Shown: piece by piece, positions 16,176 to 58,287 of the stretch
Numbering within the stretch: position 1 is the first letter of the stretch
Layout of the letters: each line of letters begins with the position of its first letter
Source: an uncultured Acholeplasmataceae bacterium
GTDB lineage: Bacteria; Bacillota_I; Bacilli_A; ML615J-28; CAG-698
NCBI GenBank assembly: GCA_963542825.1
Contig: CAUTZD010000004.1
Coordinates: forward strand, 406 to 64,405
Direction of reading: 5' to 3'
Length of the DNA: 64,000 bases
Notes under the pieces: generated by a model
The model's database searches: none
What the model was told of the DNA's origin: nothing
Seen by the model: only the letters and a program-made list of their open reading frames with translations
Program-made: the position numbers and the translations under genes

Positions 16176-16196
16176 TATAGTATCCTCCTTTATAAA

Positions 16197-16240
16197 CCGA
16201 CATTCAAACCGACATTCAAACCGACATTCAAACCGACATT
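16197..16240. repeat. 12-bp tandem repeat CCGACATTCAAA x3.7, located 22-65 bp upstream of the 14844..16175 start
   Basis: Read directly. Confidence 0.9.
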
Positions 16241-16323
16241 TTTATTTATTAGCTAATAACATTATACCCTTTTATCGAAGTAATGGAAAATTATCAAAAG
16301 ACATTTTTACATAAAATAATAAA

Positions 16324-17631: not shown

Positions 17632-17785
17632 GAATTAACATATCCCTTTCTTTTCACAAAGATAGTATCATATTGTGTATAAAAAATCAAGTTTTTTACA
17701 CTTTTTTGGAGATGAAATTTCCAAAATATTACATTTTTCTGGAGATAATCATTGATTTGTCAAAAGAACATCAAATAAAAAGAAC

Positions 17786-17812
17786 TAAATAATCGCTATT
17801 TAGTTCTAGTAA
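17786..17812 (-). terminator. Terminator hairpin AGAACTAAAT-agcgat-ATTTAGTTCT followed by T-rich sequence
   Basis: Perfect 10-bp inverted repeat immediately after the stop of 17816..19069. Confidence 0.5.
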
Positions 17813-17815
17813 AAT

Positions 17816-19069
17816 TTAAAGATCGAGCGCATTTTCGTTTAACAAAAAATCTCTTAAGCTCATCGTGACAATTCCATGTTCATCCCTTCGCAGTTTAATG
17901 TTATCATAAACAATAATAATCTTTTTAAAAGAATCAGAGATGTTAATTAAAGGGCGTAGTTCTTGGTTTTTCTTATCGCTTGTTATCAAATTATATGCTG
18001 ACTGAATATAATATCTATTGCTTCCAGAGTTCGCAACAAAGTCTACTTCTGTCTGCTTCTTTACGTAATTGTTGTTCTTGTTTTTTTCACTTATAGAAAC
18101 GATACCTATATCTACTAAATACCCTCGAGCCTTTAATTCATTATATATCATGTTCTCCATTAAATGGTTCTCTTCGGTTTGTCGAAAATTGAGCCGAGCA
18201 TTTCGTAATCCCAAATCCGTAAAGTAATATTTTTTAGAATTCTTGATATACTTCTTCCCCTTGACGTCATATCTTGAAACGCCTGTAACAAGAAACGATT
18301 CCTCAAAGATTTTCAAATAAGCATCAATTGTGTTTTTTGAAACCAAAGTTTTTTTAACACTTTTAAAAGTATTTTCAAGCTTTACAGAATTTGTTAAAGA
18401 GCCAACAGATGATGAAATAACATCGAGAAGCTCTCCCATTTCTACATCATTGCGAATATTATATCTTTCCTTGATATCTTTTAAATAAATTTCCTTATAA
18501 AGGTTAGTTAAGTAATCAGCTTTCATTTTCTCAGTTTTGCGGTTTAGAATAAAAGGCATTCCTCCATATGTTAAATATTCGCTCAAAGCCATATCATATT
18601 CCATATTCACAGCTTCAAAATACTCTTTAAACGTTAAGGGATTTACATGAATTTGATCACCGCGCCCACGAAACTCGGTAATTATGTCACTTGATAAAAA
18701 CTTAGAATTAGATCCTGTAATATAGATATCAAGGTTAGGAAGCTTTGCTAGTCCATTTAATAGTAAAACGAAGTTATGAACTTCCTGAATTTCATCAAGA
18801 AAAAGATAATAGATATCGTTATCTAATAACTTACTTTTAATATAACTATTAAGTTTAACTGGGTCACGCAGTTCTAGATTTTCTAAATCATCAAAAGCAA
18901 TTCTAATGATGTGATCACTATTAACGCCTTCCTCAAGCAAATAATCATAAAATAGCTTATTAAGCAAATATGATTTCCCACATCTTCTAATTCCTGTTAT
19001 CACTTTGATTAAAGAATTATGCATCCGGTTTTTTAGCTCATCCAAATAATAATCTCTAATGATGTTCAT
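17816..19069 (-). CDS. AAA_14 / DUF4143 family ATPase
   Basis: Walker A GIRRCGKSYLL. Very similar over its full length to 44515..45768. Confidence 0.75.
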   Translation of the reverse strand: MNIIRDYYLDELKNRMHNSLIKVITGIRRCGKSYLLNKLFYDYLLEEGVNSDHIIRIAFDDLENLELRDPVKLNSYIKSKLLDNDIYYLFLDEIQEVHNFVLLLNGLAKLPNLDIYITGSNSKFLSSDIITEFRGRGDQIHVNPLTFKEYFEAVNMEYDMALSEYLTYGGMPFILNRKTEKMKADYLTNLYKEIYLKDIKERYNIRNDVEMGELLDVISSSVGSLTNSVKLENTFKSVKKTLVSKNTIDAYLKIFEESFLVTGVSRYDVKGKKYIKNSKKYYFTDLGLRNARLNFRQTEENHLMENMIYNELKARGYLVDIGIVSISEKNKNNNYVKKQTEVDFVANSGSNRYYIQSAYNLITSDKKNQELRPLINISDSFKKIIIVYDNIKLRRDEHGIVTMSLRDFLLNENALDL

Positions 19070-19130
19070 AAAAATCCTCCAGTTTTTTATATAAGCTACA
19101 AGCTTTTTGCAATTTCATTATTTCATAACT

Positions 19131-19191
19131 TTGACAATATGTCAAGTTTCTATTGACTTTTTTTGCAAGTTTTTATAAAAAAAGTCAATAG
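19131..19191. promoter_or_regulatory. Perfect palindromes in the leader of 17816..19069: TTGACA-ATA-TGTCAA and CTATTGACTTTTTTT-N12-AAAAAAAGTCAATAG
   Basis: Read directly. Candidate operator/promoter. Confidence 0.35.
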
Positions 19192-19635
19192 ATTTATTTA
19201 CAGCATTTGATTCAATAATAAGAAAAAAGTGGCTAAAAAGCTACTTCTAATTTAAAAGCAATATTTACTTAATATTATATTTATTATTTTGAACACAAAT
19301 AATACAAATGATAAAATTACAGTTGTACGATTTTTTCGTACAACTTCTTATGTGCTTATGTTTTGTAATTTCATATCTACATAGGGACAATTTATCCCTA
19401 TGTAGAAAGTCAGCTAATCATCACACTTTTTTATCTTATTAAAACGATCTATTAAATTTTTATTTTCTAACAAAATATTAACAACATCAAATACTAAAAA
19501 ATACTATATTAAACAATGTGAAAATTGCTTTATTCGCTACTGTTTTTTAGAAAAACAACTTGAAAGTAACTATGTTAAGGGGATTTTTGCTTCGCTATTT
19601 GTTATACAAAATTTATATGCATCAATAAAACATTA

Positions 19636-19722
19636 TGGTGCCACCAGCGGGATTCGAACCCGCACGCTTTGAGGGCGCTTGATTTTGAGTCAAGTTTGTC
19701 TACCAGTTCCAACACGGTGGCA
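19636..19722 (-). tRNA. tRNA-Leu (anticodon CAA), long variable arm, encoded CCA
   Basis: rc reads TGCCACCGTGTTGGAACTGGTAGACAAACTTGACTCAAAATCAAG...GGGTTCGAATCCCGCTGGTGGCACCA. Confidence 0.9.
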
Positions 19723-26703: not shown

Positions 26704-27143
26704 CGGCTTTTCTTTTCCTTTTTTAATTCTTTTTCTTTAAGACTTTGTCTTTTATCATATAACTTCTTACCTTGACATAAAGAAATCTCAAGTTTAATTA
26801 ATCCGCCTTTTAAATATAGTTTGGTTGGGATAAGCGTTAACCCTTTTTCGTGAATTTTGGAACCGAGACGCACAATCTCCGTTTTGTGAAGCAAAAGCTT
26901 ACGATCGCGCGTTTCCTCATGATTAAACAAAGTTCCCTTACGGTACTTACTAATATTTAAAAGGGAAACAAAAATTTGTCCTCCCTTAATATAGCAGTAA
27001 CTATCATTAAAACTAACGCCGTGTTCTCTCAAAGCCTTAACTTCAGTTCCCGTTAAGACAATCCCAGCTTCAAAGCGCTCAATTACTTTATAGTTGAAAG
27101 AGACTTTTTTATTAACTAAAATTGTTTTTTCTTTGTTATCCAC
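26700..27143 (-). CDS. smpB: SsrA-binding protein SmpB
   Basis: VNKKVSFNYKVIERFEAGIVLTGTEVKALRE is canonical SmpB. Confidence 0.9.
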   Translation of the reverse strand: MDNKEKTILVNKKVSFNYKVIERFEAGIVLTGTEVKALREHGVSFNDSYCYIKGGQIFVSLLNISKYRKGTLFNHEETRDRKLLLHKTEIVRLGSKIHEKGLTLIPTKLYLKGGLIKLEISLCQGKKLYDKRQSLKEKELKKEKKSR

Positions 27144-29093
27144 TTACTATCTCGAGATCAATTTCGCCTTTGTATTTGTTAGCGTGTTTTACTCGTACTT
27201 TTATTTTACCACCGATTTCATAATGTTTGCTGTTTATTATTACAAAACCGTCTTTTAAGTTAACAATTGGCTTACGCTTTAAATGCCTGAAAACAACGAG
27301 ACCTTCAAAACCATCATTAAAATTCACAAACATTCCAAACTCTTGAATGTTCATAATGATGCCTTGGTATACTGAGCCAAGATGTTTTTCCATATATTCA
27401 GCCCCCTTTATTGAGAGAAGCGTTCGTTCTAATGCAAGTGCATTTTTTTCTTTTTCGTTGATGCTACTTATAACAGCTTCGATATCTGGAAGTGTGTATC
27501 CTTCCTCTTTAAAAAGCTCTCTATGAATTAACCAGTTAATATAAAGATCAGAGAAGCGTCTAATTGGCGCCGTAAAGTGAGTGTAGCAAGAGCTTCCAAG
27601 GCCAAAGTGTCCGATGTTTGAGGCTGTATATTCAGCCTTTGCAAGCGAGCGTAATAGAAGCGAGCGGTAAGCTAAATTGTCAGGAAGCGTTTTATCTAAA
27701 TAATTATAAGTACTAGCCTTTAGGCGTTCTTTAACCAAAAAGCCTTTAGCTTTTAAAAAGGCTTTGAGCATTTTTTCTTTTTGAACTGGAGGTCGATCGT
27801 GAACACGATATATTGTATCAACATTTGTTTCCTTTAAAAAAGAAGCTACCGTTTCGTTAGCGATAATCATCAGTTCTTCAATGAGGTCTTCCATAGTATA
27901 ACGCTTACGATTAACAAAATTTAAAAGAAAACCATTTTTATCAAGTTCTAAAAAATATTCAGGAAACGTAAAATTGATGCGGCGGCGATGAACATCGCGG
28001 GCTTTTAAAACGCCTAAAAACTCTCTAAAAAGAAGGGCTAAGCTATGATACTTTTCTTCTTTATTTATAAGAGCTCTTTCTAGTCCCTCATAACTTAGCC
28101 GGTCACTAACAACAATTGTTAAAGGCTTTATGTTCTTTTTTCTATTAGACCCTCGTTTGTTAGAAAAAACTCAACCCCAATAACTTTCCGCATTTCGCCT
28201 TTTTTTAAACTACATACGCCGTTTGAAATCGCTTCTGGGAGCATCGGAAAAACATAGTCAGAAAGATAAAGGCTTGTCGTCCGAAAAAGCGCCTCACAAG
28301 CGATTTTCGATTGATTTCGGACATAAAACCCAACGTCAGCGATATAAACACCAATTTGATAACCGTTTTCTACTTTTGTGATTTTGATAGCATCATCCAG
28401 GTCTTTAGCACTAACTGCGTCTACCGTATAAATGTTTTTAGTAACAGGATCCATTAAAGGCGCGTCTTTTATTTTTCTTGATTCAAGGATAACATCTTCG
28501 GGAAACTTTGGGTGAAACCCAAACTCGTAAACGAGGCGCACAATATCACCACTACGTCCCTTAAGTGAATCAAGAGTTTTTAAAACCTCAACTTTTAAAA
28601 GACCAATATTTAAATTAACAGGTGTAAGTTTTACTAAAAGAACGGTATCACTTTTAAAGTCTTCTGAAGTTTCGAAAAGAAACGAAAAATTAGATTTCAA
28701 AAAAGTTTCAAAAATTTTCTCCCTAGTTAAATACCCATAAGTTTTCTCCGGAAACGGCTCAATAATATCATAAACATATGCCACTTCTCCTTTTGCAATG
28801 CTTGCCCCGATACGGTAAATGGCTTTAGCCCCAGAAAAAGCATAAAAGGCACGCGATTTAAAAACCTTAATTCCATCCACGCTAAAATGCATTCCCCCTT
28901 CATACTTTAAAGTTCCGACATTTACTCCGCCATCAAAAAACCGAAACTTACCGTTTGAAAAGAAAATCTTAAAATCTTTCCGAAAACTATTTAAAATCTT
29001 TCGGGCCTTTATTTCGTTAATCTTAGTTTTATCTAAAAACTCCAAAAACGTAAAAGGCTTATGAAATAACTGTTTTAATTCATTTATTGTCAC
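27136..29093 (-). pseudogene. rnr: RNase R (rnr) split into two ORFs (28128..29093 N-part and 27136..27894 C-part) by a -1 frameshift in a T6 (A6 on the coding strand) homopolymer at 28136-28141
   Basis: N-part has the RNB start AKDLDDA. C-part has ELMIIANE plus an S1 domain. The frame joining them is open across the 233-bp gap. Adding one A gives ...GLIEKKNIKPLTIVVSDRLSY, which aligns to the B. subtilis RNase R segment GEVVEHRIFPSVIKTTERMTY. Confidence 0.75.
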
Positions 29094-38599: not shown

Positions 38600-39811
38600 T
38601 CAGTCTTTTAAACAGCCAATTGGAACAACAAAAACTTCATCATCTCTTTGGTATCCATAGTTAGTGCTCGTAATAAGCATTTTAAATTCTGAAAGTTTAG
38701 GATAGCCATTTTTCAAATCTTTCGTTATTTTTTCATGAAGTTTATTTAACTTTTCTGCTTCTTCTTCAATACCGTTTGGACCAAGAGTCGAACTGACAAT
38801 TGCTGCTTTACCACTATCAAGTGTTAAAACAAAACTAATTTGTTCATCATTTTCTAAGTAAAAGATTTTGCCACCATAAATATTAGCATATACTTTTAAA
38901 TCCCGTAAAACAAGCGATTTAAAAATCGTTTCGTAGTCACTAAGGTTTAGCCGTAAATAATCAGGAGTTTTGTGAAAAATTGCAGTAACAAGTGAAGGAT
39001 CAACAAACATATATTTCTTTGTAGCTTTATTGTCCTTTTTACCCCACAAAGGAATCTCTTCAACAATATATAAATCTTCTAAAACTTTAATGTACTTATT
39101 GAGAAGGTCATTATTGAGTTTACCTTTCGAAAACGTAAAGCGCTCATAATCATAGCTTTCCAAAACTTTCTTCATAATTTCATGATCAACTACTTGATTC
39201 TCTTTAATAAGTTTAGGAGACGGAATATTTTTTAGGTAAGTTTCTACATAACGTATTTGCTTCGTCTTATCATTCTCGGCTAAACTTTCTGGCCACCCGC
39301 CACGACATGTAGCAAAAACAAGATCATCTAAACTAAGAGACGCTTCGCATCTTTTTTCTAAGCGATCAATGCCAGTGAAAAGTTCAATTAACGAAACACT
39401 TCCATTACTTTCAGCTGATTCATATAAACTCAAAGGATACATTTTAATCTCATAAAGCCAAGGTTTTTCTAGTTCTTCTTTACATGAACTTGTAACGATG
39501 TACTGACGTTTTAACTCTCTATTTTCTAAACTACTCCCAATAATTTCCCAAAGCTTTGATTTTTCTTGGCACTCGGCAATAAGTCTTGGTTTCGCTCCTT
39601 TTAATAAGAAATGTGGATTAAGTTCTTCGGTAATTCGGTTCTTTTCATCATCATCACTATATTTTAAAAGAATACTACTTTTCGCTTTTTCTAAAGCAAC
39701 GATTGTTTTGCCGCTGCCCTTAACTCCTGTCAGTAAAACAGCACCATAGGTGTACGTCTTAATATCTAAGAGCTCGTCGATAATTCTTTGATAGTAAATA
39801 TTTTCTTCCAT
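38600..39811 (-). CDS. Divergent AAA ATPase (DUF4143-like)
   Basis: Walker A LLTGVKGSGKT. Length and C-terminal region resemble the other DUF4143 ATPases. Confidence 0.55.
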   Translation of the reverse strand: MEENIYYQRIIDELLDIKTYTYGAVLLTGVKGSGKTIVALEKAKSSILLKYSDDDEKNRITEELNPHFLLKGAKPRLIAECQEKSKLWEIIGSSLENRELKRQYIVTSSCKEELEKPWLYEIKMYPLSLYESAESNGSVSLIELFTGIDRLEKRCEASLSLDDLVFATCRGGWPESLAENDKTKQIRYVETYLKNIPSPKLIKENQVVDHEIMKKVLESYDYERFTFSKGKLNNDLLNKYIKVLEDLYIVEEIPLWGKKDNKATKKYMFVDPSLVTAIFHKTPDYLRLNLSDYETIFKSLVLRDLKVYANIYGGKIFYLENDEQISFVLTLDSGKAAIVSSTLGPNGIEEEAEKLNKLHEKITKDLKNGYPKLSEFKMLITSTNYGYQRDDEVFVVPIGCLKD

Positions 39812-40075
39812 TTTTCCCCTCTACAGTTTAATTATATATAGTAATCGAGAAAAAGTCAACATGAAACGGTTTCATTAAGTGCAATATATTACTATAAAAT
39901 AAATATAAAAATGCCGACCTCCAGTCATTAGATTTATTAGTCTAACTTTTGAAGATCGGTAAATCGAACAATCAGCTAAGGATATCTCTACAATGCAAGT
40001 ATATGAAAATATTTTTTAGTTTGAAGATAATTTTCTAAAAACTTATCTACATTGACAAGCTTAAAAATGAATATG

Positions 40076-40816
40076 CTATTTAATGAATTTCTTTTGCCTC
40101 ATTTCATCGTAGACTTGATTAACAGCTTCAATGTAACAAATGAATGACGGATGGTCATAGTCATTTTTTACAAGATACATATTCTTTTTATTTAAATATA
40201 CTTCTCTTACTTTGGTCCACAAATTATTATCTTTTAACCATTCAACTTTTTCTATTAACCCTTGAGAATTTCTGCCTTTATTCCAAATCCATTCATCAGT
40301 TTGTATTATTCCTGTTTTCTTATGGATTAATCTCTGCCATCCATTTTCATCCTCAGTTACAATACAAAGATCAATACTAAATAACGTTTTGTTGTTGGTT
40401 TTAAACCTTATCTGTTCAGTTGTTAAAGCCGATTTTGAATCTTGGCAATCCGCCAATCCTTTACGCTTTAGAACCTTATTGAATGATTTTCTAACATATT
40501 CTTTGATATTTTTACAATCATTAATATTAAACTTAATAGAATCTATAATACAAAGGTTATAATCTAAATCAATTGGTTTATTTGCATTTTGTGTAACTAA
40601 ATTCCTTGCTCCGCTTCCAACTAAGTGTGCTTCAACTTCTAGTAATCCTTCATTATTAATCATTTGGACTAATTGATTGATAATTCCAGAACATAAATTA
40701 TTCATTCTTTTTAAAAAATCTTTGTCTTCTACAAAGTGATACATAATATTATTTCCTTTCTTGTCCCAACTCGACCATTCAACAACATTATTCACTAAAA
40801 ACGACAAAAAATCCAT
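40076..40816 (-). CDS. Polymerase-beta-superfamily (minimal) nucleotidyltransferase-fold protein, 246 aa, function unknown
   Basis: hG[GS]-x14-DhD signature (LVGSGARNLVTQNANKPIDLDYNL) plus a downstream acidic strand SIDLCIVTED. Own RBS 27 bp after the upstream nuclease gene. Confidence 0.45.
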   Translation of the reverse strand: MDFLSFLVNNVVEWSSWDKKGNNIMYHFVEDKDFLKRMNNLCSGIINQLVQMINNEGLLEVEAHLVGSGARNLVTQNANKPIDLDYNLCIIDSIKFNINDCKNIKEYVRKSFNKVLKRKGLADCQDSKSALTTEQIRFKTNNKTLFSIDLCIVTEDENGWQRLIHKKTGIIQTDEWIWNKGRNSQGLIEKVEWLKDNNLWTKVREVYLNKKNMYLVKNDYDHPSFICYIEAVNQVYDEMRQKKFIK

Positions 40817-40843
40817 ATTTATTATTGATGACGAATTATTTTA

Positions 40844-41527
40844 TTAAATTGATATTTTTTTAAATTCTTTTCCTAAACATTTTGCAAAACTATATTTTTT
40901 ATTATATTCTTCTATGGTAAGAAAACGTTCATTAGGTATTGATAAAAATGATTTTGATTTTAAACCCAATATGCTTTTTACTTCTTCTTTAGACTTTGTT
41001 ACACAAATAATATCAAATCCGTAATCATTTATTAACTGACTAAAACTAATGCTTTGAGTGCTTCTAACCCCTCCATCACCTGACAAAAATTTAGTAACTT
41101 TTTTCTCTAAAAACTTTCCTAGTTTTGGGTTTTGTCCATATACTAAAAATAATAGGTTACTAGCGTTTTTCCAAATGGCTAAACATAAAAATACTTTATC
41201 GCTTTGAAAACATTTTGTTTTTTCTATAGTAGTATCATTAAAAGTCGCACCCCAAGTTGAAGCAGAAAAACTTGCAGATTTAACTTCTAAAAACACATCA
41301 ACTTCTTTGTCTAACTTGCAGTCAAAACCATGCTTTTCAACATTAACCAAATTATACCCTAAATAATATCCTGCCATTGAATCTCTTAATTCATTAATGA
41401 AAGTGTCAGTATCGCCTTTTCCCCATTTTTCTTGAATAATTGCTACTTCTTCTAATATTTCATGACCTTCAATTAAAAATTCTCCATTTATTGGTTTGTA
41501 TGTTCCTTTTTCTAACAAGCTACTCAT
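40844..41527 (-). CDS. PD-(D/E)xK nuclease-fold protein, candidate Type II restriction endonuclease (227 aa)
   Basis: GFDCKL...VDVFLEVKS gives a canonical D...(E)xK arrangement. Its start overlaps the stop of the methyltransferase gene by 8 bp. Confidence 0.45.
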   Translation of the reverse strand: MSSLLEKGTYKPINGEFLIEGHEILEEVAIIQEKWGKGDTDTFINELRDSMAGYYLGYNLVNVEKHGFDCKLDKEVDVFLEVKSASFSASTWGATFNDTTIEKTKCFQSDKVFLCLAIWKNASNLLFLVYGQNPKLGKFLEKKVTKFLSGDGGVRSTQSISFSQLINDYGFDIICVTKSKEEVKSILGLKSKSFLSIPNERFLTIEEYNKKYSFAKCLGKEFKKISI

Positions 41528-42776
41528 AAATTCTATCCTTTACTATGTAATCAACATCTTTTTTAATATGTTTTAAATAAGTATCTATTCTTACTAACAT
41601 CACATCACTAACTTTCGGAAGTGAGTATCCTAAGCCACTCATTATTTTAAATGAATCGGTTTCTTTATTAATTAATTCATCCAATTGAATAAGGATATAT
41701 TTGTGTTTTCTTTTATCTTCATAATTTATTTCATATACAGCTTGTGCAGTTGTACCACTGCCTGCGTAAAAATCTAAAATAATAGCATCGTTGTGCTGAG
41801 AGCATCTAATTAAAAATTTAATTAACTCAACCGGCTTTGGAGTATCAAATAATCCATCTAAACCTAATTTTTTAAGATTATTAGTCCCTTGACGAGAATA
41901 AAAATCTAAAATTGAGGAAACGTTATTAGTTGCTTCTTCTAAATATTCAATAGCATATGGCCTTCCATTTTTGAAAACTAATCTATTTTGGTTATACAAT
42001 GATAATATTTTTTCTTTGCTCGACCATCCTCTAGTTTTTAGTGGTTCCAAATGTAATCCGATTTCATCAATATCTAGTCTGCTTGGTTTTCCAGGAGTTG
42101 ATAAATCTTTAGAAAAGTAAATTCTTCCATCATTAGAGATATTAGAATAATTCCTTATCCATGTTTGTCCTGTTTCGATAATGTATTTTTCTATCATTTT
42201 TTTTAACTCTTTTTCTGCTAATTTAAAATCAGAAGAATATATTGATTGTATTTTTTTAATGATTACTTTAATTTTTGAATTTTCAAAAGGATCGTTTAAA
42301 CGATTAATAAAAAATTTTGGCAACTTCTTTTTGTTTTTGGCAAATGCAACCACGTATTCATGTATTATGTTAATATGTTTTGCATTACTTCTTTGTGCTT
42401 GTTTGGTAATAAATATTCCCACATAGTTTTCTTTTCCAAAAATTTTATAGCACGTATGCAGTAATGAGGATAATTCATTGTCATCAATACTCATAAAAAT
42501 AATACCTTCGTCGCTCAAACACTTTCTCGCAATCTCTAGTCTCACAAAAATATCTTTTACCCACTCCTCGTTGTCATCATTGTATGAAAATATATTTTTT
42601 GTATTGTATGGAGGATCAATATAAATAAAGTTGATGTTGCCAAAAAATCTTGAAAATTCATAATGACACATGGTTTGATAATTATCGCCTATGTAAATAA
42701 TATTTTTTTCTAAAATCATCGTCCAAAACCTACACCTATTGGGCTTTAAAAATTGAGAAAAAAGTGGTATAATCAT
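41520..42776 (-). CDS. Beta-class DNA methyltransferase (N6-adenine or N4-cytosine)
   Basis: Motif IV IYIDPPYN lies N-terminal to motif I DFYAGSGTT. The functional start is probably the second Met (MILEKN..., 42719), behind AGGTG. Confidence 0.8.
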   Translation of the reverse strand: MIIPLFSQFLKPNRCRFWTMILEKNIIYIGDNYQTMCHYEFSRFFGNINFIYIDPPYNTKNIFSYNDDNEEWVKDIFVRLEIARKCLSDEGIIFMSIDDNELSSLLHTCYKIFGKENYVGIFITKQAQRSNAKHINIIHEYVVAFAKNKKKLPKFFINRLNDPFENSKIKVIIKKIQSIYSSDFKLAEKELKKMIEKYIIETGQTWIRNYSNISNDGRIYFSKDLSTPGKPSRLDIDEIGLHLEPLKTRGWSSKEKILSLYNQNRLVFKNGRPYAIEYLEEATNNVSSILDFYSRQGTNNLKKLGLDGLFDTPKPVELIKFLIRCSQHNDAIILDFYAGSGTTAQAVYEINYEDKRKHKYILIQLDELINKETDSFKIMSGLGYSLPKVSDVMLVRIDTYLKHIKKDVDYIVKDRIYE

Positions 42777-42904
42777 AGTGGAAAATATTAAATATTTTAA
42801 AATATTATAAGGAATTTTTTATATTACGAAAGGTGTACTTTTTGAGACTTATTCTTGATAAGTCTATTTTTTTATTTAATATATACGTTGAGGAGGTCAT
42901 AAGC

Positions 42905-43522
42905 ATGAAATATGGCTATGTAAGAGTCAGTACTGCCCAGCAACATATAGATAGACAAATTGATTCGCTGTTAAAAATGGGATTAGATAAAAATTCAATT
43001 TATATTGATTGTGAATCAGGTAAAGATTTTAATAGGAAAAACTACAAAAAATTAATAAGAAAATTAAAGAAAGATGATCTATTAATAATAAAATCTATTG
43101 ATAGATTGGGGAGAAATTACAACACGATAATTGAAGAGTGGAGATTAATTACAAAAAGTAAAGGAGCGAACATCGTGGTAATCGATATGCCACTTCTCGA
43201 TACTAGAATTGATGGAAAAAATCTTGTCAGTAAATTGATTAGTGATATTGTTTTACAAGTGTTATCATTTGTTGCACAAAATGAAAGAGAAACTTTACAT
43301 ATTAGACAAGCAGAAGGCATTAAGGCTGCTAAAGCTAGAGGAGTAAAATTTGGCAGACCTAGAATTTCTTTACCTTTTAATTACAAAGTAGTCGCAAAAC
43401 AATATTTAAATAAAGAAATCACAAATAAAAAAGCCTGCGACATACTCGGTATGACACGAGGCTCTTTCTTCAGATATTTGAAGGAAATGAATATAAATTC
43501 AACTAATAAAACAAAAACATAA
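42905..43522 (+). CDS. Serine recombinase (resolvase/invertase family) with C-terminal HTH
   Basis: MKYGYVRVSTAQQHIDRQ (catalytic Ser), ...DRLGRN... GAGGAGG RBS. The track ORF starts 24 codons upstream without an RBS. 7-bp inverted repeat GACTTAT-tcttg-ATAAGTC at 42846-42864 just upstream. Confidence 0.85.
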   Translation: MKYGYVRVSTAQQHIDRQIDSLLKMGLDKNSIYIDCESGKDFNRKNYKKLIRKLKKDDLLIIKSIDRLGRNYNTIIEEWRLITKSKGANIVVIDMPLLDTRIDGKNLVSKLISDIVLQVLSFVAQNERETLHIRQAEGIKAAKARGVKFGRPRISLPFNYKVVAKQYLNKEITNKKACDILGMTRGSFFRYLKEMNINSTNKTKT

Positions 43523-43602
43523 AAAATTTAATACATGTATTAAAACCATTTCATCATAATGTATAAGTATGTGATTGGTTGATACAATTTCTTAACTCCT
43601 TA

Positions 43603-44392
43603 CTATTTTCCATACCCCTGAATATTGTGTACACTAATTTTATTATCATTTTTTGTTTTTTCCAATTTCTTGATGTTGCTATTAGTTGTTTTATTTAATG
43701 AAAGTAGCTGTAAATTACATAATTTCTTAAGTTCTATCATTCTCTCTTTTTGTTGTAGCCCTTTAGTAAAAATAGCATTATAGCTTTCCATATTAGAAAG
43801 AACTAATAGTTCGTTAAGTAATGCGAAGTCTCTAATATTTCCTTTTAAACTAGGATTTCAATTTGACCATTTTTTAGCAGTTTTGCTAAAAATGACAAAA
43901 TTTAACATATCAGCTTCACTTGCATATTTAAAAGATAATTTACTTTCTGTTAAATCTTGAGTTAAGCATTCTTCAATAGCGTCCGCATGGATTTTGTAGT
44001 TTATTTTTGATATTTCTCTATTTAAATTCCAGCTGAGAGACAATTTAGAACTCTGATCTAACTTTATTCTCTTATTTTATATATAATTTAAATTCAGAAG
44101 AAATCCACGAAGCAAATTCCATAGCGATATCGCTATGAGCATAAGTACCACCATATTTGCCAGATTTAGAGACTATACCGATTGCGTTAGTTGAATCAAT
44201 CCATTTATTTGGGGTCATCGTAAGCCTGTTGAGACCGGCTTCGTTTCTAAACGTGTCGAATTCGACACGGTTAAAATTGGGATTATTTAGTGCTTCCCAT
44301 AATCCGATAAATTCAAGCGTATTTCTATTGCGCATCCAGTTTTGAATAACAAATCGCGAATCATCATTATTTTTATATCTAGTTTTAATCAA
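43603..44392 (-). pseudogene. KilA-N domain phage-type gene (intact N-domain ORF 44072..44392) followed by two short out-of-frame ORFs (43858..44043, 43603..43791) that look like its disrupted C-terminal part
   Basis: ...GKYGGTYAHSDIAMEFASWISSEFKLY matches the KilA-N conserved GTW/Y-H-D-A-FA-W-S-F block. Downstream fragments have no independent RBS. Confidence 0.45.
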
Positions 44393-44514
44393 TTTCTAAC
44401 GTTCAAAATAGTCAACTTTTTGGGTTCACCTCAGTGTAATTATTATATGAAGATATTCATCTTATTATTGATACAAATAAAAAGTTCTCGTACTACCGAG
44501 AACTATAATAAATT

Positions 44515-45768
44515 TTAAAAATGATCATTCAATAAAAACTCTTTGATCCCCATGATTGTAATTCCATCACCAGTTATCCAAGTATTAATATCATCTTTAA
44601 CAATGATAATCTTTTTAAACGAGTCATCTATTTTTAAAAGTGGTCTTGTTTCTTGCTCCATCTTTTCGGAGTTCGGAATTGAATACACTGATTGAATGTA
44701 ATATTTTTGCATGCCATCATTGCACACAAAATCAATTTCTAACTGTTTGTAATTTAATTTGTCATTTAGTCTTCGCCTATCAATCGCCATTCCAACATCA
44801 ACCGAAAAGCCTCTTATAAGCAATTCATTATAAATAATATTTTCCATAATATGATTTTCCTCTTGTTGTCGAAAATCAAGTTTGGCATTTCTTAAACCAA
44901 TATCTGTAAAATAGTATTTAGAAGGTGATGAAATATATTTTCTACCTTTCACATCAAATTTTTGCGCTTTTGAAATGACAAAAGCATCAAGAAGATATTT
45001 AATATATTCGCTTATAGTAAGATCAGTTGTTTTGTACCCCATCGACTTAAAAGTATCGGATATTTTTTTCGCGCTAGAAAATGATCCGATTGCTGACGCT
45101 AATATATTTACAAGCGTGTCTAGTACCTTCTCGTCTTTTAAATTATTACGCTCGACGATATCTTTTATATATGTATATTCAAACAAAGTTTTAAGATATG
45201 CCCTTTTTTCTTCATGGGTCTTCTTCGCTAGAATGAAAGGCAAGCCACCATAAGTGAAAAAGTTTTTCCAAGCATCGTTAAAACTTAATTCATTATCAGA
45301 ATAATATTCTTTAAAAGACAAAGGATACACCCTTACTTCATCTCCGCGACCACGAAATTCGGTAATAATATCTGAAGAGAGAAATTTTGAATTTGACCCC
45401 GTTACATAAATATCTAGATTTTCAATTCTATTTAATCCATTAAGCATAGCCTCAAAGCCGTCGCACATTTGAACTTCATCGATAAATAAATAGTATGCTT
45501 TGTTATCAACAATCTTTTTTTCAACATATGCTCTTAATACTTTTTTATCCTTTAAACTTTCGTATTTATCATCATCAAGCGATATTTTAATAATATGATC
45601 GTTTGGGACGTTTTGTTCTAATAAATAATTATAAAACAAATTAAATAATAGAAAAGATTTTCCGCTTCTTCTGATTCCTGTAATGATTTTTATCGCTGAA
45701 TTGTCTTTTCTTGCGATTAATTTATTTAAGTAAATGTCGCGCTTGATAATATGCATTATAATCTCCAC
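44515..45768 (-). CDS. AAA_14 / DUF4143 family ATPase
   Basis: Walker A GIRRSGKSFLL. Collinear with 17816..19069. Confidence 0.75.
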   Translation of the reverse strand: MEIIMHIIKRDIYLNKLIARKDNSAIKIITGIRRSGKSFLLFNLFYNYLLEQNVPNDHIIKISLDDDKYESLKDKKVLRAYVEKKIVDNKAYYLFIDEVQMCDGFEAMLNGLNRIENLDIYVTGSNSKFLSSDIITEFRGRGDEVRVYPLSFKEYYSDNELSFNDAWKNFFTYGGLPFILAKKTHEEKRAYLKTLFEYTYIKDIVERNNLKDEKVLDTLVNILASAIGSFSSAKKISDTFKSMGYKTTDLTISEYIKYLLDAFVISKAQKFDVKGRKYISSPSKYYFTDIGLRNAKLDFRQQEENHIMENIIYNELLIRGFSVDVGMAIDRRRLNDKLNYKQLEIDFVCNDGMQKYYIQSVYSIPNSEKMEQETRPLLKIDDSFKKIIIVKDDINTWITGDGITIMGIKEFLLNDHF

Positions 45769-45777
45769 TATGAATTT

Positions 45778-45870
45778 TGTGTAATATTACACTTTTCTCA
45801 TATTCATTATATCATGAACAAAATAAAATGTCAATATGAAAAAAGTGTAATATTACACTTTTTTCATATT
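45778..45870. promoter_or_regulatory. Two direct copies (66 bp apart) of AGTGTAATATTACACTTTTyTCATATT, each containing the perfect 14-bp palindrome GTGTAATATTACAC, in the leader of 44515..45768
   Basis: Palindromes read at 45779-45792 and 45845-45858. Confidence 0.4.
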
Positions 45871-46078
45871 AAGAATTACATAAAAGTTTACCTTTTATCC
45901 ATGTTATAACAATAATTATCTGAAACTATTTTTAAAATAAAAAGGGAAAGATTCAATTGATGCTTTTGCGTTTGTAAATCAAATGGATCCTTTTTCCCGC
46001 ATTTTCTGCAAAAATTTCTCCTTTGGAATCATATTCTACAGTGAACCCCTCAGTTATATCAAACTTTTATGGCTCGCC

Positions 46079-46223
46079 TCAAAACTCTTTAATCCAAATC
46101 TCTAAACTATCTAGATTAAGTGAGAGGTTTTCTAACTCAATATATAATATTCCATTATCATCATACCAAGGCAGTATATTATCTTTAATTACAACAACCT
46201 TTTTGAATGAATCATTAATTTTT
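46079..46223 (-). pseudogene. C-terminal 47-aa remnant of another DUF4143 ATPase (KINDSFKKVVVIKDNILPWYDDNGILYIELENLSLNLDSLEIWIKEF)
   Basis: Matches the C-terminal ...DSFKKIIIVxD... block of 17816..19069 and 44515..45768. A stop lies immediately upstream in the same frame. Confidence 0.5.
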
Positions 46224-46738
46224 TAAACCCTTTTTTGTGGATATTTACATTTTTTGTCAATAATAAGATGAGGAAACACTATCGATTAGTCGTTTGTTTT
46301 ATCTTGTAATACTTCAAGTATAAACAAAAAAGCTTAATGAAATAAAAAAAGGTCTGATAACTTGTATCAAACCTATACATTCACATATGTAAGATAATTA
46401 ATTTTAAAACTAATAATGTTCTCATTTTTCAACTAAAAATCTATTATCATAGAAACCGCCAAAAAGTGCTTTCATGAAGAAAATACTTATCTATCATCTG
46501 CTTGTGAATAATACCATTAGGATCTCTAAAAAAAAAAATCAAATATGTGCCTAAATATTCTTCGCTACCAGATACTATTTTATTACTTCCCAATACCCTT
46601 TTTTTCTAAAACCAATTTTCTTTATAATCAAACCATCCATGTTCATCAGAAAAAGATAATATATTCTCAATAATATCAATATTATCACTCATAATCATTC
46701 CTCCTTTATATCATTTATAGTGTACCACAACTGCTTAT

Positions 46739-46786
46739 AAAGTATACAATAAAGTATACAATAAAGTATACAATAAAGTATACAAC
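46739..46786. repeat. 12-bp tandem repeat AAAGTATACAAT x4
   Basis: Read directly. Lies about 45-95 bp upstream of a 27-aa RBS-bearing ORF stub (46609..46692, minus strand) that dissolves into frameshifted fragments across a T11 tract. Confidence 0.9.
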
Positions 46787-46859
46787 GCACATTGATTTTT
46801 ATAATCTATCATTTGTAAAATTTAATAACTTTTCCTATTAAAGAATCGTTGCATAAGCC

Positions 46860-47200
46860 CATTTTACGTATTATCTATAATTTCCCAATAGCCTTTAGTT
46901 AATCTAATTTTTCTGATAAAGCTATCTTCTTTTGATTTAGCAATTGTTCTTTAGATAAAACGGAAAGATTTATTAAGCATTTTAACTAATTTTTTCGCTG
47001 ATAAATATGGATCATTTTTGATTAGTTTAATTAATGTTTTTTATCATCAGTTGATGTTCTATTTATGTGACCATTTAAAACATCATTTACGATACGACGT
47101 TTAAAAATAAATGTAAACCTTCCATGACAATAATATATTCTCTTTTCATTTCACTTTCTTTAAACTTTTTAAAACTCTTTTAAAGCCACTACCATAAGAC
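46860..47200 (-). pseudogene. Decayed gene debris, possibly a transposase N-terminal HTH region, broken by several stops
   Basis: Minus-strand frames give ...KRRIVNDVLNGHINRTSTDDKK.. / ..LIKLIKNDPYLSAKKLVKMLNKSF.. interrupted by stops. Weak call. Confidence 0.25.
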
Positions 47201-47338
47201 TCAACATCATCGGATAAAAATATATTTAATTGTTAAAAAGGCTTTTCATGCTTTCACCAAAATGATAATTGTGAAAATAAGAAATGAAAAAAGACTGATA
47301 TTTAGAAAAATCCTTATATCAATCTTATTGTCCTTTAA

Positions 47339-47416
47339 TGGTGTCCTTGATGGGATTCGAACCCACGACCTTCGGCTTCGGAGACCGACACTCTAATCCA
47401 GCTGAGCTACAAGGAC
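47339..47416 (-). tRNA. tRNA-Arg (anticodon CCG)
   Basis: rc reads GTCCTTGTAGCTCAGCTGGATTAGAGTGTCGGTCTCCGAAGCCGAAGGTCGTGGGTTCGAATCCCATCAAGGACACCA. Anticodon stem TCGGT/GCCGA, loop CTCCGAA. Confidence 0.85.
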
Positions 47417-47509: not shown

Positions 47510-47586
47510 TGGCGTCCCAAAGAGGATTTGAACCCCCGACCAATAGTTTAGGAAACTACTGCTCTATCCAGCTGAGCTATTGGGAC
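47510..47586 (-). tRNA. tRNA-Arg (anticodon CCT)
   Basis: rc reads GTCCCAATAGCTCAGCTGGATAGAGCAGTAGTTTCCTAAACTATTGGTCGGGGGTTCAAATCCTCTTTGGGACGCCA. Anticodon loop TTCCTAA. Confidence 0.85.
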
Positions 47587-55785: not shown

Positions 55786-55836
55786 AACGGAGGTATGATG
55801 AGGTGAACCCAAAAAATTGGACATTTTTATAATAAT

Positions 55837-56159
55837 TTAATTTGTCGTAAGACGGGACTGTTGTCTATATTCTAATGGACTCAGTCCTTTTAATTTGACT
55901 TTAATTCTGTCTTTGTTGTAGTACTTTATATATTTTATCATCGCCTGTTCTAAATCATGAAGTGATTTGAATTCATGTTCATGACCATAAAACATTTCGT
56001 TTTTCATAATTCCAAAGAAGTTTTTCATTAAAGAATTATCAAGGCAGTTTCCTTTTCTAGACATAGACTGGATAATGCCTTTATCCTTTAGAATCTTTTG
56101 ATAATAGCACATTTGATATTGCCAACCTTGATCACTGTGAAATATTAAACCATTTAAGT
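55837..56159 (-). pseudogene. IS3-family transposase (OrfB) C-terminal remnant, about 105 aa from the second DDE residue onward
   Basis: ...LIFHSDQGWQY...SMSRKGNCLDNS...FFG.MKNE...YYN..R..KL...SPLEYR. The frame is open to a stop at about 56160 and there is no upstream catalytic domain. Confidence 0.7.
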
Positions 56160-56163
56160 TATT

Positions 56164-56421
56164 TTATTTATTAAAAGCTTTATCAAGCATATCTAAAATT
56201 TGATCAAAGTTTGGACTTTGAGAAATCGAATAAGAATCGTTTAAATAAAAATGAACAAGTTGCTCTTTAGCACAATTGTAAATAGACACATAATCAATAT
56301 TTTTTTCTTCAATACCGTTGTTTTTTAAGATTTCTATTAGTTTTAATAAACTATCTTTCTTAGTTTCCATTTGTGTATCCTTTTGCTTGCGTATTAAACA
56401 GTTCAGAGTATTTTGCGCCAA
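56164..56421 (-). CDS. Small hypothetical ORF overlapping the 3' end of the ABC transporter gene (85 aa)
   Basis: ORF only. Possibly spurious. Confidence 0.2.
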   Translation of the reverse strand: MAQNTLNCLIRKQKDTQMETKKDSLLKLIEILKNNGIEEKNIDYVSIYNCAKEQLVHFYLNDSYSISQSPNFDQILDMLDKAFNK

Positions 56422-58132
56422 GTTTAATCAATTCGATGTGGTTGCCCGACTCAATAATTTTTCCTTCTTCTATATAAATTATTTTATCGGCGTCCTTCGT
56501 TGTTGACAAACGATGGGAAATTAAAATTAAAATTTTATTTTGGGTGAAATTTTGTATAAGTTTATTTAATTTTTTTTCACTTATTGGATCTAGCATACTT
56601 GATGGCTCATCCATAATAAAGCAACTCCCGTTTTTATATAATAATCTTGACAAAGCAAGCTTTTGAATCTCACCACCAGACAAAATAAGCCCTTCCTTAC
56701 TAAACATTTTGGTATATTGGCTGTTGATTTTTAATTCGCTTTGTTCTATTTTTTCGTATATTCCGGTTTTCTTAAGTGCGTCGATTATTTTATCTTTTTT
56801 GTATTCTGTTTCGCACGAAATTTGTTCTGCGATTGAAATAGAATATAATTGAAAATCTTGAAATATACTTGATATATGTTTTCTTAACTGTTTAACATCG
56901 TATTTTTTAATATTTATATTATTAATTAGTATTTCACCTTCCGATACATCGTAGAATCTCATCATAAGTTTAATTAATGTTGTTTTGCCGACGCCATTTA
57001 ACCCCACAATAGCAAGTTTTTGACTTCTGAAAACTGAAAACGATACATCGTTAATAATTAGTTTTTCGCTGAACGGATATTTAAATGATACATTTTTAAA
57101 TTCTATGCTTTCTATCTTATCAATGTTTAATGTTTTTTCTCCGCCTTCTTTTTCGATTATTGGTTTGTACTCCATTACTCTTCTAAAGTTTTTCACAAAA
57201 AGTGAGCTTTCTTTAAAATTAGAAACGTTTCTAGATACTTCAGAGACACTATTGTTAAATAAATTGAACGAACTCCACAATGCACCAACATCACCATAAG
57301 AAATTATCCTTTTAATTCCTTGATATGCAATGTAACCTAGTGGTATAAGATAATTAATGATAACTACCAAAAATGATTGAACAAAATTTTTAATGTTATT
57401 ATCTTTTTTTATCCGCTTCTTTATGTTAATTTTTTCATGACAAGAATCAACATATTTATTTTCTATAATGTTCTTTAAACCGAAATATTGTTTTATGTCA
57501 AAAATAGTTTTTCGATCATAAAAAACACTTTTAAAATAATTAATTTTTCTTTCTGGTATTGCCAATTTATTTTGATTTAGATATTTTTTCTTAACAAATA
57601 AAATATCTAGGAAATAAAAAATAATGCTTGTGAAAACAGCGATTAGCAAGAGGAGTGGATCAATGTAAATTATTATCGAAAAAGAAATAATTATGCAAAG
57701 TATGTTATTTATAAATTGGAAAAATTGGTTGTATACAATCATTGCTCTATTATCAGCTTCTTTAACCGCTCGCATTAATTCGTTATTAAAAGCCGGATCA
57801 TCGAAAACTTCAATATCCAAACTAGAGATTTTTTCCAGAAGCATAATATTTAATTTTTTAGATACTTTAATGCTTAGTATTTCGTTCTGGTAATTAAAAA
57901 TAATAGACGCAAAAATTCTTGTTGTAAATTCAATTAAAGCAAACGCCGAAATATAAATAATAACATTGTAAAATTTTTCTTGCTTTTCTATTGAGTCAAT
58001 AATGATTTTAAAAATAAAAACTCTTAAAAAAGTCGGAATTGTGTTATATAACACATATAAAATCCTAAACAAAAAATTTTTTTTGTCGGCTCCCCAAACT
58101 ATTTTCAACATATAAAAACAATTTTTAATCAT
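56360..58132 (-). CDS. ABC transporter, fused permease/ATP-binding half-transporter (exporter type)
   Basis: Six predicted TM segments then an NBD with GLNGVGKTTL, LSGGEIQKLALSRL, IMDEPSSMLD. Confidence 0.85.
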   Translation of the reverse strand: MIKNCFYMLKIVWGADKKNFLFRILYVLYNTIPTFLRVFIFKIIIDSIEKQEKFYNVIIYISAFALIEFTTRIFASIIFNYQNEILSIKVSKKLNIMLLEKISSLDIEVFDDPAFNNELMRAVKEADNRAMIVYNQFFQFINNILCIIISFSIIIYIDPLLLLIAVFTSIIFYFLDILFVKKKYLNQNKLAIPERKINYFKSVFYDRKTIFDIKQYFGLKNIIENKYVDSCHEKINIKKRIKKDNNIKNFVQSFLVVIINYLIPLGYIAYQGIKRIISYGDVGALWSSFNLFNNSVSEVSRNVSNFKESSLFVKNFRRVMEYKPIIEKEGGEKTLNIDKIESIEFKNVSFKYPFSEKLIINDVSFSVFRSQKLAIVGLNGVGKTTLIKLMMRFYDVSEGEILINNINIKKYDVKQLRKHISSIFQDFQLYSISIAEQISCETEYKKDKIIDALKKTGIYEKIEQSELKINSQYTKMFSKEGLILSGGEIQKLALSRLLYKNGSCFIMDEPSSMLDPISEKKLNKLIQNFTQNKILILISHRLSTTKDADKIIYIEEGKIIESGNHIELIKLGAKYSELFNTQAKGYTNGN

Positions 58133-58211
58133 TTTATAACTCCTTAATTATTTTAATTAAATCATTATTCAAACTATTGTATGTAAGTAAAAATCCATTT
58201 GCTTTTTTGTT

Positions 58212-58256
58212 GATTTTAAAACATTGTAGTGAACCCCTAAAGTTGGACACCAACTG
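58212..58256 (-). terminator. Nested hairpin (12-bp outer stem GTAGTGAACCCC/GGGGTTCACTAC, 6-bp inner stem AGTTGG/CCAACT) after the GHL10 gene
   Basis: Read directly. Followed by a weak U-tract. Confidence 0.4.
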
Positions 58257-58287
58257 AGGGGGTTCACTACATGAAACCTCCGTTTTT

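Follow-up and report, generated by a model that had tools for sequence, protein, structure and literature searches.

What kind of locus lies behind a tRNA gene when the adjoining DNA is foreign in composition, rich in defence-type genes and half decayed? The question arises for about 7.4 kb (positions 39961-47335) of a 64,000-nt window, the whole stretch of DNA analysed here, from an uncultured, Acholeplasma-like species of the Bacilli of gut or rumen type. In this stretch a row of genes for restriction-modification (R-M), a nucleotidyltransferase (NTase), a serine recombinase, a KilA-N protein and DUF4143 ATPases adjoins tRNA-Arg(CCG). An initial annotation, made from the sequence alone, had read the region as an element that integrated at the tRNA 3' end and whose cargo then decayed. 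Comparison with strains of the same species leads to another answer, namely that the region is probably a horizontally acquired, strain-variable defence and accessory island at a recombination hotspot that has tRNA-Arg(CCG) on one side and a conserved DUF4143-ATPase gene on the other. As a description the initial annotation was largely confirmed; two of its labels, transposase debris and iterons, had to be changed, and the NTase is detached from the R-M genes.

Extent and composition of the island

The limits of the island were set by the loss of collinearity between the window and other strains of the species. These strains, found through cluster look-ups of the window's proteins, are represented by metagenome contigs (designated by L numbers) that are 95-97% identical to the window at the nucleotide level in the flanks, and in at least five of them the end of collinearity coincides with the limits given here. 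On the left, L086, L087, L088, L103 and L104 all match the window up to a terminator-like hairpin (Table 1), with blastn break points at about 39878-39960. The hairpin lies upstream of the conserved flanking ATPase gene, which is present in every strain recovered (its 90% cluster has eight members) and is 97-98% identical at the amino acid level in L086 and L088. The same flank shows a small strain difference of its own, a 29-nt insertion in the window relative to L086, L087 and L088 (ATATTTATTTTATAGTAATATATTGCACT on the minus strand, about 39885-39913), which falls between that hairpin and the conserved ATPase's promoter.

At the right-hand end, collinearity with L091 and L094 extends across tRNA-Arg(CCG) and is lost at 47335, 4 nt beyond the CCA end. 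The tRNA is encoded on the minus strand, so that its CCA end faces the island, and one end of the island is therefore placed at the 3' part of a tRNA, as in an element that targets such genes. The span first proposed, 39830-47338, was correct to within about 130 nt, and its contact with the CCA end is upheld by ARAGORN, by Rfam and by the point at which collinearity ends.

The island is compositionally foreign DNA. The comparison with the flanks that had been proposed for guanine-plus-cytosine (GC) content and dinucleotide skew was made with GC and tetranucleotides and gave 27.6% GC for 39961-47335 against 35.0% for the rest of the window (z = -4.7), the lowest value among 168 other 7.4-kb windows being 31.4% (mean 34.7, sd 1.5), and a strand-symmetrised tetranucleotide distance to the rest of 0.34, against a maximum of 0.15 elsewhere. 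Gene by gene, GC in the island ranges from 26 to 30%, compared with 37.5% in the flanking amidase gene and 38.8% in topA.

Block-wise variation among strains

The conserved flanks enclose at least four mosaic architectures, and the strains differ from one another block by block. Read from the tRNA side, the window carries AlbA_2-type debris, an array of 12-mers, a deleted AlbA_2-type gene, an ATPase stump, an ATPase unit, the KilA-N pseudogene, the recombinase, and the genes for a methyltransferase (MTase), a restriction endonuclease (REase) and the NTase. L086 and L102 follow this order from the 12-mers to codon 67 of the KilA-N gene (window 44192); beyond it they carry the C-terminal half of an IS30 transposase, an IetA-like AAA ATPase and a DUF4238 gene, a block that stands where the window has the recombinase and the R-M pair, and they rejoin the window at 40799 with the NTase. 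L091 and L088, taken together, begin on the tRNA side with 206 unrelated nt, the last 35 or so codons of the debris gene, the 12-mers and an intact 461-aa AlbA_2/HATPase_c_4/HTH_24 gene; their middle part holds only a 3' ATPase stump, an intact 296-aa KilA-N gene, the recombinase (with a 10-residue deletion), the MTase and the REase; and on the left, in the slot of the NTase, L088 has a HATPase_c_4 gene, a three-gene ATP-binding cassette (ABC) transporter and three small open reading frames (ORFs). L103 holds this transporter, a divergent NTase allele and a 139-aa ORF.

Block junctions recur at about 39960, 40799/40839 and 47335, the junction at 44192 being found in a single strain, and all blastn blocks are collinear between strains. 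The modes of difference are block replacement, deletion and, at one junction in one strain, an IS30 remnant. Relatives with an identical gene order and no indel polymorphism, which the initial annotation had named as speaking against it, did not appear; the strains are rich in indels and, as in a variable hotspot, the interior is replaced block-wise between conspecific flanks. In the window's copy of the island, intact genes are limited to those of the R-M pair, the NTase, the recombinase and a single ATPase; the KilA-N gene, two AlbA_2-type genes and one further ATPase are pseudogenes or stumps. The gene content is that of a defence cluster, with a type II R-M system, the PADLOC candidate families PDC-S01 (one intact, one stump) and PDC-S22 and, in L086, the IetA-like ATPase.

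The junction at 44192 has a peculiarity. In L086 (2374-2952) the KilA-N frame breaks off after codon 67 and continues, in frame, as the C-terminal half of an IS30-family transposase, which covers NCBIfam profile positions 160-267 of 267 (E = 8e-34) and begins exactly at the block junction; this remnant is confined to the L086-type strain, and the window has none.

In the reading favoured here, the island would be a row of independent units, each extending roughly from promoter to terminator: an orphan NTase, an R-M operon travelling with a recombinase, a KilA-N gene, a PDC-S01 ATPase, and AlbA_2/HATPase_c_4/winged helix-turn-helix (wHTH) genes. Exchange, loss or replacement of units among strains would proceed singly, block by block. 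Several points weigh against this reading. The mode of exchange is one that we infer: DNA taken up by the cell, or brought in by phages or other mobile genetic elements, would recombine homologously within shared flanks or neighbouring blocks. No comparison contig spans the whole region, and L091 and L088 are joined by a common sample and an overlap of only 40 nt. For the REase/NTase junction (40800-40838) the only evidence is the assembly of the window itself, and no more than 4 nt separate the right limit from a tRNA 3' end, a classic integrase target. Finally, for most genes other than the R-M pair the term defence is guilt by association, because PDC-S01 and PDC-S22 are only candidates.

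The REase/NTase junction also bears on the possibility that the mosaic is in part an assembly chimera, a contig of a metagenome-assembled genome stitched from co-occurring strains. The source is indeed a metagenome-assembled contig, public samples contain several strains side by side, assemblies end within the region, and this particular junction is without independent support. All the other junctions, however, are corroborated by independent assemblies: L091 and L094 confirm the join of tRNA and 12-mers, L086 that of array and KilA-N, L091 that of KilA-N and recombinase, L088 that of recombinase and nuclease, and L086 and L102 that of NTase and flank. The low GC content continues uniformly across the REase/NTase junction. 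A chimera of this kind is extremely improbable.

Possible integration at the tRNA gene

The position of the island beside a tRNA raises the alternative that one integrative element (an island, satellite or prophage remnant) entered the 3' end of tRNA-Arg(CCG) site-specifically, that its integrase and distal attachment (att) site decayed, and that the mosaic is secondary. Such an element would account for a boundary that lies 4 nt beyond the CCA end in all strains, for the foreign composition and for the heavy pseudogenisation, and tRNA loci are frequent hotspots for the integration of defence-carrying elements in Escherichia coli (PMC10121019). The traces of the integration itself, however, were not recovered. 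Within the window, a search that allowed up to 3 mismatches in 25 nt gave no second copy of the tRNA 3' end; relaxed 15-mer matches all lie far away, with none near the island; and a fuzzy search allowing 5 mismatches in 25 nt, 3 in 18 or 10 in 45, extended to seven strain contigs, returned only the tRNA itself, which is present in L091 and L094 among the seven. The direct repeat of the tRNA-Arg 3' end proposed for the neighbourhood of 39.8 kb is accordingly absent from the matches, even in the fuzzy search. Neither a tyrosine integrase nor a large serine recombinase was found, intact or as debris, among the ORFs, in the six-frame translation or by family scans.

Alignment with related strains, which had been suggested as a way to find the empty site, yielded only occupied architectures among the recovered metagenome contigs, and in none of these comparisons is the island present or absent as one unit. 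No close relatives were found among GTDB representative genomes (by a TopA scan) or among Joint Genome Institute metagenome contigs (by conserved junction sequences). Beyond the species, the closest TopA has 59% identity, a distance at which gene order downstream of topA is no longer conserved, so that sister species are unusable for the search for an empty site. Searched by blastn as a whole against plasmid and phage collections, the island gave only scattered single-gene matches from different taxa.

The internal structure likewise argues against a single element. The tRNA-proximal gene is a 5'-truncated AlbA_2-type gene and no integrase, the sequence directly after the tRNA is already strain-variable, and the blocks have separate histories, to judge from the neighbours of NTase homologues and from the ATPase unit in L089 and L090 (both described below). 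From the initial annotation, foreign DNA bounded by a tRNA and carrying decayed cargo thus remains, whereas for integration at the tRNA 3' end neither an att repeat nor an integrase or an empty site was recovered. One integrated element is an unlikely explanation of the island as it stands; a founding, ancient tRNA-targeted integration that seeded it is plausible from the position of the right limit but likewise of low probability, and no diagnostic trace of it is left. Adjacency to a tRNA, foreign composition and decayed cargo are together insufficient for calling an integrative element, where conspecific contigs reveal a block-wise mosaic.

Williams reportedly formulated, in 2002, sublocation rules for tRNA-integrated genomic islands with tyrosine integrases. 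The present island resembles these in adjoining the tRNA 3' end exactly and in its atypical composition, and differs from them in having no integrase, no att direct repeat and no presence or absence as a unit. A possible tRNA fragment at 44028-44043 was rejected, being a 16-nt, 88% match to the D-arm region only, at which ARAGORN and Rfam report nothing.

The restriction-modification pair and the serine recombinase

One unit of the island is a predicted type II R-M pair, supported in silico, with a PvuII-like nuclease for which there was no prior family model. The MTase, assigned by Pfam and PADLOC (Table 1), has the PPY and S-adenosylmethionine-binding motifs of such enzymes (IDPPYN and DFYAGSGTT), with DPPY ahead of FxGxG. 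The start of the adjacent REase gene overlaps its stop by 8 nt. In the REase, residues D69, E81 and K83 are nearly invariant among 118 representative homologues, and the AlphaFold2 (AF2) model (predicted local distance difference test score, pLDDT, 93.5) finds its best Foldseek matches in PvuII, NhoI, Eco15I-N and DpnI, PvuII being the top REase fold match (probability 1.0, template modelling (TM) score by target 0.59-0.65). The REase belongs to no family in Pfam, NCBIfam or PADLOC; the plasmid collection contains no homologue of it, and its sequence matches nothing in the PDB. The MTase and the nuclease are kept together in strain L088. The R-M claim of the initial annotation is in this way supported in silico for both partners, by family profiles for the one and by motif and predicted fold for the other.

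Divergently from this operon lies a small serine recombinase in which the Pfam Resolvase domain extends over profile positions 2-144 of 145, with the serine within YVRVSTAQQ, and is followed by a C-terminal helix-turn-helix (HTH). It is 47-51% identical to small recombinases of Firmicutes plasmids, and its leader contains a perfect 8-N5-8 inverted repeat, AGACTTAT-N5-ATAAGTCT, at 42845-42865. The orientation, the leader repeat and the serine type of the only recombinase present, with no tyrosine integrase beside it in ORF and six-frame family scans, had all been described correctly.

This recombinase might itself be the engine of the variation. It would then work as an integron, a shufflon or a master invertase does, with site-specific insertion, excision or inversion of cassettes. 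Its catalytic domain and HTH are intact, it matches the PHROG DNA invertase family (E = 2e-49) and the Mpi master-invertase model of NCBIfam over their full length, it has the leader repeat, and some block junctions occupy the same positions in several strains. The match to the NCBIfam model nevertheless scores below the cut-off, and the leader repeat is single and statistically unremarkable: no second copy was found, and its one match at up to 3 mismatches is at chance level (52 of 100 shuffles). The block junctions have no matching sites, and since all blocks are collinear, with no segment inverted from one strain to another, there is no sign of inversion by the recombinase. Moreover, L086-type strains vary without the recombinase block, and the copy in L088 has a deletion in its catalytic domain. 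A driving role for this enzyme is highly unlikely. It most likely travels with the R-M block as a resolvase-type passenger and is not the integrase of the island, and the leader repeat may be its own binding or autoregulatory site.

The L088 copy (L088 3-488) lacks 10 catalytic-domain residues (LKKDDLLIIK) relative to that of the window, and because of this deletion it may be inactive. Two pairs of long inverted repeats were considered as the flanks of an invertible segment and rejected; they are AT-rich and 71-74% complementary, and no inversion between strains accompanies them.

Furuta, Abe and Kobayashi are said to have described, in 2010 and by genome comparison, putative mobile forms of R-M systems. 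The compact MTase-REase operon beside a divergent small serine recombinase resembles mobile type II R-M units with small recombinases, and in the window and in L088 the three genes stay together as one block. It differs in that no flanking repeats were found and in that the L088 recombinase has a deletion, and any mobility of the block would be putative.

The orphan nucleotidyltransferase

In the initial annotation the R-M genes and the NTase formed one module. Both are present, but the NTase is no part of the R-M system. Its cassette has limits of its own at about 39961-40799, as given by L086, L088 and L102, and among 80 GTDB loci of NTase homologues none contains this nuclease, while one has a distant MTase homologue several kb off. 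A three-gene R-M/NTase module was on these grounds rejected, none of the 80 loci linking the NTase to this R-M system. No neighbouring gene family occurs in more than 10 of the 80 loci, and the family found in 10 is that of a large serine recombinase.

The NTase has 1441 homologues of about 215 aa, in which GSG, DLD and the third Asp are invariant; they are 50-65% identical across Clostridia, Mollicutes and other phyla, and occur also on 14 viral contigs of IMG/VR. No Pfam, NCBIfam, PADLOC or PDB sequence match was obtained for it, nor any match at E <= 0.01 to the PADLOC and Pfam models for CD-NTases (cGAS/DncV-like nucleotidyltransferases) and SMODS. Its AF2 model (pLDDT 90) has its best fold matches in CdnE and CdnB of the cyclic-oligonucleotide-based antiphage signalling system (CBASS), with a TM score of only about 0.48. 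Its predicted fold and GS...DxD...D catalytic triad resemble those of these CD-NTases; unlike them it is some 70-100 residues shorter, and no CBASS effector gene stands beside it in the window, nor any constant partner in the 80 loci. By its sequence and its modelled structure, the NTase appears to be an independent orphan cassette with a CD-NTase-like fold, and, as a further and improbable reading, the family of about 215 aa could represent a new single-gene defence or counter-defence enzyme. A widespread, minimal CD-NTase-like family that has no family model is a pointer for annotators and may repay further work.

DUF4143 ATPases and the KilA-N pseudogene

PDC-S01 (AAA_14/DUF4143 ATPase) and PDC-S22 (KilA-N) are phage-defence candidates of PADLOC, predicted by guilt by embedding (Payne et al. 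2024, bioRxiv 10.1101/2024.01.29.577857). Members of both are identified here by strong profile matches, although the families are predictions only and in the window one member is a pseudogene and another a stump. The KilA-N gene was rightly called frameshifted, since PDC-S22 profile positions 32-132 and 148-278 of 281 are found in separate frames; in addition, 250 nt are gone, including the promoter and the first 33 codons. Its intact orthologue in L091, of 296 aa, matches PDC-S22 with E = 2e-123.

The intact ATPase gene forms a self-contained transcription unit, and the duplicated palindromes that had been noted in its leader are indeed there: they are identical, 66 bp apart, not expected by chance (0 expected) and putative operators. 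The exact 1443-nt unit, with promoter, palindromes and terminator, recurs at 85.5% identity in L089 (9819-11258) and L090 (2649-4088), between QueH and a 783-aa protein on one side and GH20 on the other, a context unrelated to the island. The ATPase gene thus appears, from sequence comparison, to move as a discrete promoter-to-terminator block.

The second ATPase was also correctly described as a C-terminal stump, of a different DUF4143 protein; its translation aligns by tblastn with residues 375-417 or thereabouts of the window's ATPases at 39-42% identity. Different DUF4143 stumps occur in two strains (window 46097-46260; L091 8990-9180), both beginning near residue 365-375 and both directly following the same upstream flank (...AAAAATGTAAATAT). 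They could have arisen by loop-out between homeologous 3' ends or by targeted replacement. This shared placement of the two stumps may repay further work.

A more specific version of exchange has also been considered, in which the hotspot is served by an integrase-independent, position-specific exchange of compact promoter-to-terminator defence units at fixed junctions. The PDC-S01 ATPase unit with its twin-palindrome operator would be the clearest candidate for such a unit, given the precise 1443-nt block found elsewhere, and incoming DUF4143-ATPase units would replace a resident paralogue, or insert, at its 3' end and leave C-terminal stumps behind. So specific a mechanism is distinctly improbable.

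DUF4143 ATPases also occur in a second tRNA-adjacent cluster of the window (14844-19721, GC 0.31), which follows, on the downstream side, the 3' end of the minus-strand gene for tRNA-Leu(CAA) (19636-19721). Besides an intact AlbA_2/HATPase_c_4/HTH_24 gene (14844-16175), this cluster contains two further PDC-S01 AAA_14/DUF4143 ATPases (17816-19069 and 16324-17631). With these two ATPases, the 64 kb contain in total four intact DUF4143 ATPases and one stump.

AlbA_2-type remnants and the 12-mer array

The tRNA-proximal part of the island holds the remains of two AlbA_2-type genes, which the intact gene of L091 (7286-8671, 461 aa) helps to recognise. What had been taken for a 27-aa ORF stub is indeed a short ORF behind the array, of 30 codons, and is the N-terminus of an AlbA_2/HATPase_c_4/HTH_24 gene that has suffered a 1.24-kb internal deletion, shared by L086; in blastn and tblastn, window segments 46698-46608 and 46628-46578 map to the two ends of the L091 gene.

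The array itself was correctly counted at four 12-mers, and the same four copies stand upstream of the intact gene in L091; assemblies L086 and L094 break inside it. A role as iterons of a plasmid origin was rejected, the array adjoining the AlbA_2/HATPase_c_4/HTH_24 gene. The label is unwarranted because the 12-mers lie in the promoter region of that gene and no replication-initiator gene was found near them; the repeats of GTATACTTTATT are putative operators.

The supposed transposase debris proved to be something else. Its conceptual peptides match, by BLASTP, residues 397-460 of the 461-aa L091 protein, that is its wHTH end (E = 2e-6), and no transposase family, so that transposase debris was discarded as a label. 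The last 35 or so codons are common to L091 and L094, in which the tRNA-proximal 349 nt are replaced by 206 unrelated nt. Since the missing 5' two-thirds of this gene would overlap the tRNAs, the gene was cut by the event that made the tRNA junction.

Relation to known defence hotspots

Defence islands at chromosomal hotspots have been mapped across the E. coli pan-genome (Hochhauser et al. 2023, PMC10121019). The island described here is like them in its clustered defence-type genes, conserved flanks, strain-variable content, tRNA-adjacent position and foreign composition. It differs in that no recognisable carrier is left, be it a prophage, a satellite, an integrative conjugative or mobilizable element, or an integrase, and in that the cassettes are very small, half of them are pseudogenes, and the host is known only from metagenomes. 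It is an ordinary variable defence island that leaves current concepts unchanged. For annotators of uncultured Mollicutes-like gut and rumen bacteria, it provides a delimited defence hotspot, a predicted new R-M pair and corrected labels for two pseudogenes.

Features of the island and its borders

Table 1. Coordinates of the features in and around the island, in window positions from left to right
Feature	Position	Strand	Evidence and remarks
Divergent AAA_14/DUF4143 ATPase	38600..39811	-	Weak Pfam and PADLOC matches; conserved flank, outside the island
Terminator-like conserved hairpin	39915..39960	-	Left limit of strain variability; window aligned with L086, L087, L088
NTase, stand-alone, minimal, 222 aa (246-aa ORF)	40076..40744	-	GSG...DLD...D triad; CD-NTase-like predicted fold
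Candidate cognate type II REase, PD-(D/E)XK fold, 227 aa	40844..41527	-	Conserved motif; AF2/Foldseek
Type II DNA MTase, N6-adenine/N4-cytosine, beta-class	41520..42776	-	Pfam N6_N4_Mtase E = 7e-36; PADLOC MTase_II E = 5e-103
Small serine recombinase, resolvase/invertase type, 205 aa	42845..43522 (coding sequence 42905-43522)	+	Pfam Resolvase E = 2e-26
KilA-N pseudogene, PADLOC candidate PDC-S22	43603..44392	-	Pfam KilA-N; PDC-S22 pieces
Terminator of ATPase unit	44504-44483		3' of the coding sequence
Self-contained ATPase transcription unit (AAA_14/DUF4143, PDC-S01)	44499..45941 (coding sequence 44515-45756)	-	Pfam; PADLOC E = 2e-120
Palindromes of ATPase unit, two perfect 14-bp copies of GTGTAATATTACAC	45845-45858 and 45779-45792		Flank the promoter; putative operators
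Promoter of ATPase unit, TTGACA-17-TGnTATAAT	45834-45806		Consensus match, between the palindromes
C-terminal stump of a different DUF4143 (PDC-S01-type) ATPase	46097..46222	-	Translation KINDSFKKVVVIKDNILPWYDDNGILYIELENLSLN
Remnant of second AlbA_2/HATPase_c_4/HTH_24 gene	46578..46698	-	First 30 codons joined to the last 17 or so
Four tandem 12-mers, GTATACTTTATT	46736..46783	-	Promoter region of AlbA_2-type gene
Frameshifted C-terminal third of AlbA_2/HATPase_c_4/wHTH-type gene (formerly transposase-like debris)	46867..47193	-	Conceptual peptides; BLASTP
tRNA-Arg(CCG)	47339..47416	-	ARAGORN; Rfam 67.5 bits; right limit of the island at its CCA 3' end
tRNA-Arg(CCT)	47510-47586		Next after tRNA-Arg(CCG); topA beyond

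Other observations in the window

Two further features of the window lie apart from the island. The gene for RNase R (RNB/S1; window 27136-29093) is split into two ORFs, 28128-29093 and 27136-27894, between which about 90 positions of the RNB profile are missing, and may be a pseudogene or may reflect a sequencing frameshift. A stretch of 2.47 kb (55799-58270) is absent from the conspecific contigs L092 and L093, which join 58271 directly to 55798; in the window it encodes a 590-aa ABC exporter (ABC_membrane and ABC_tran, 56360-58132).

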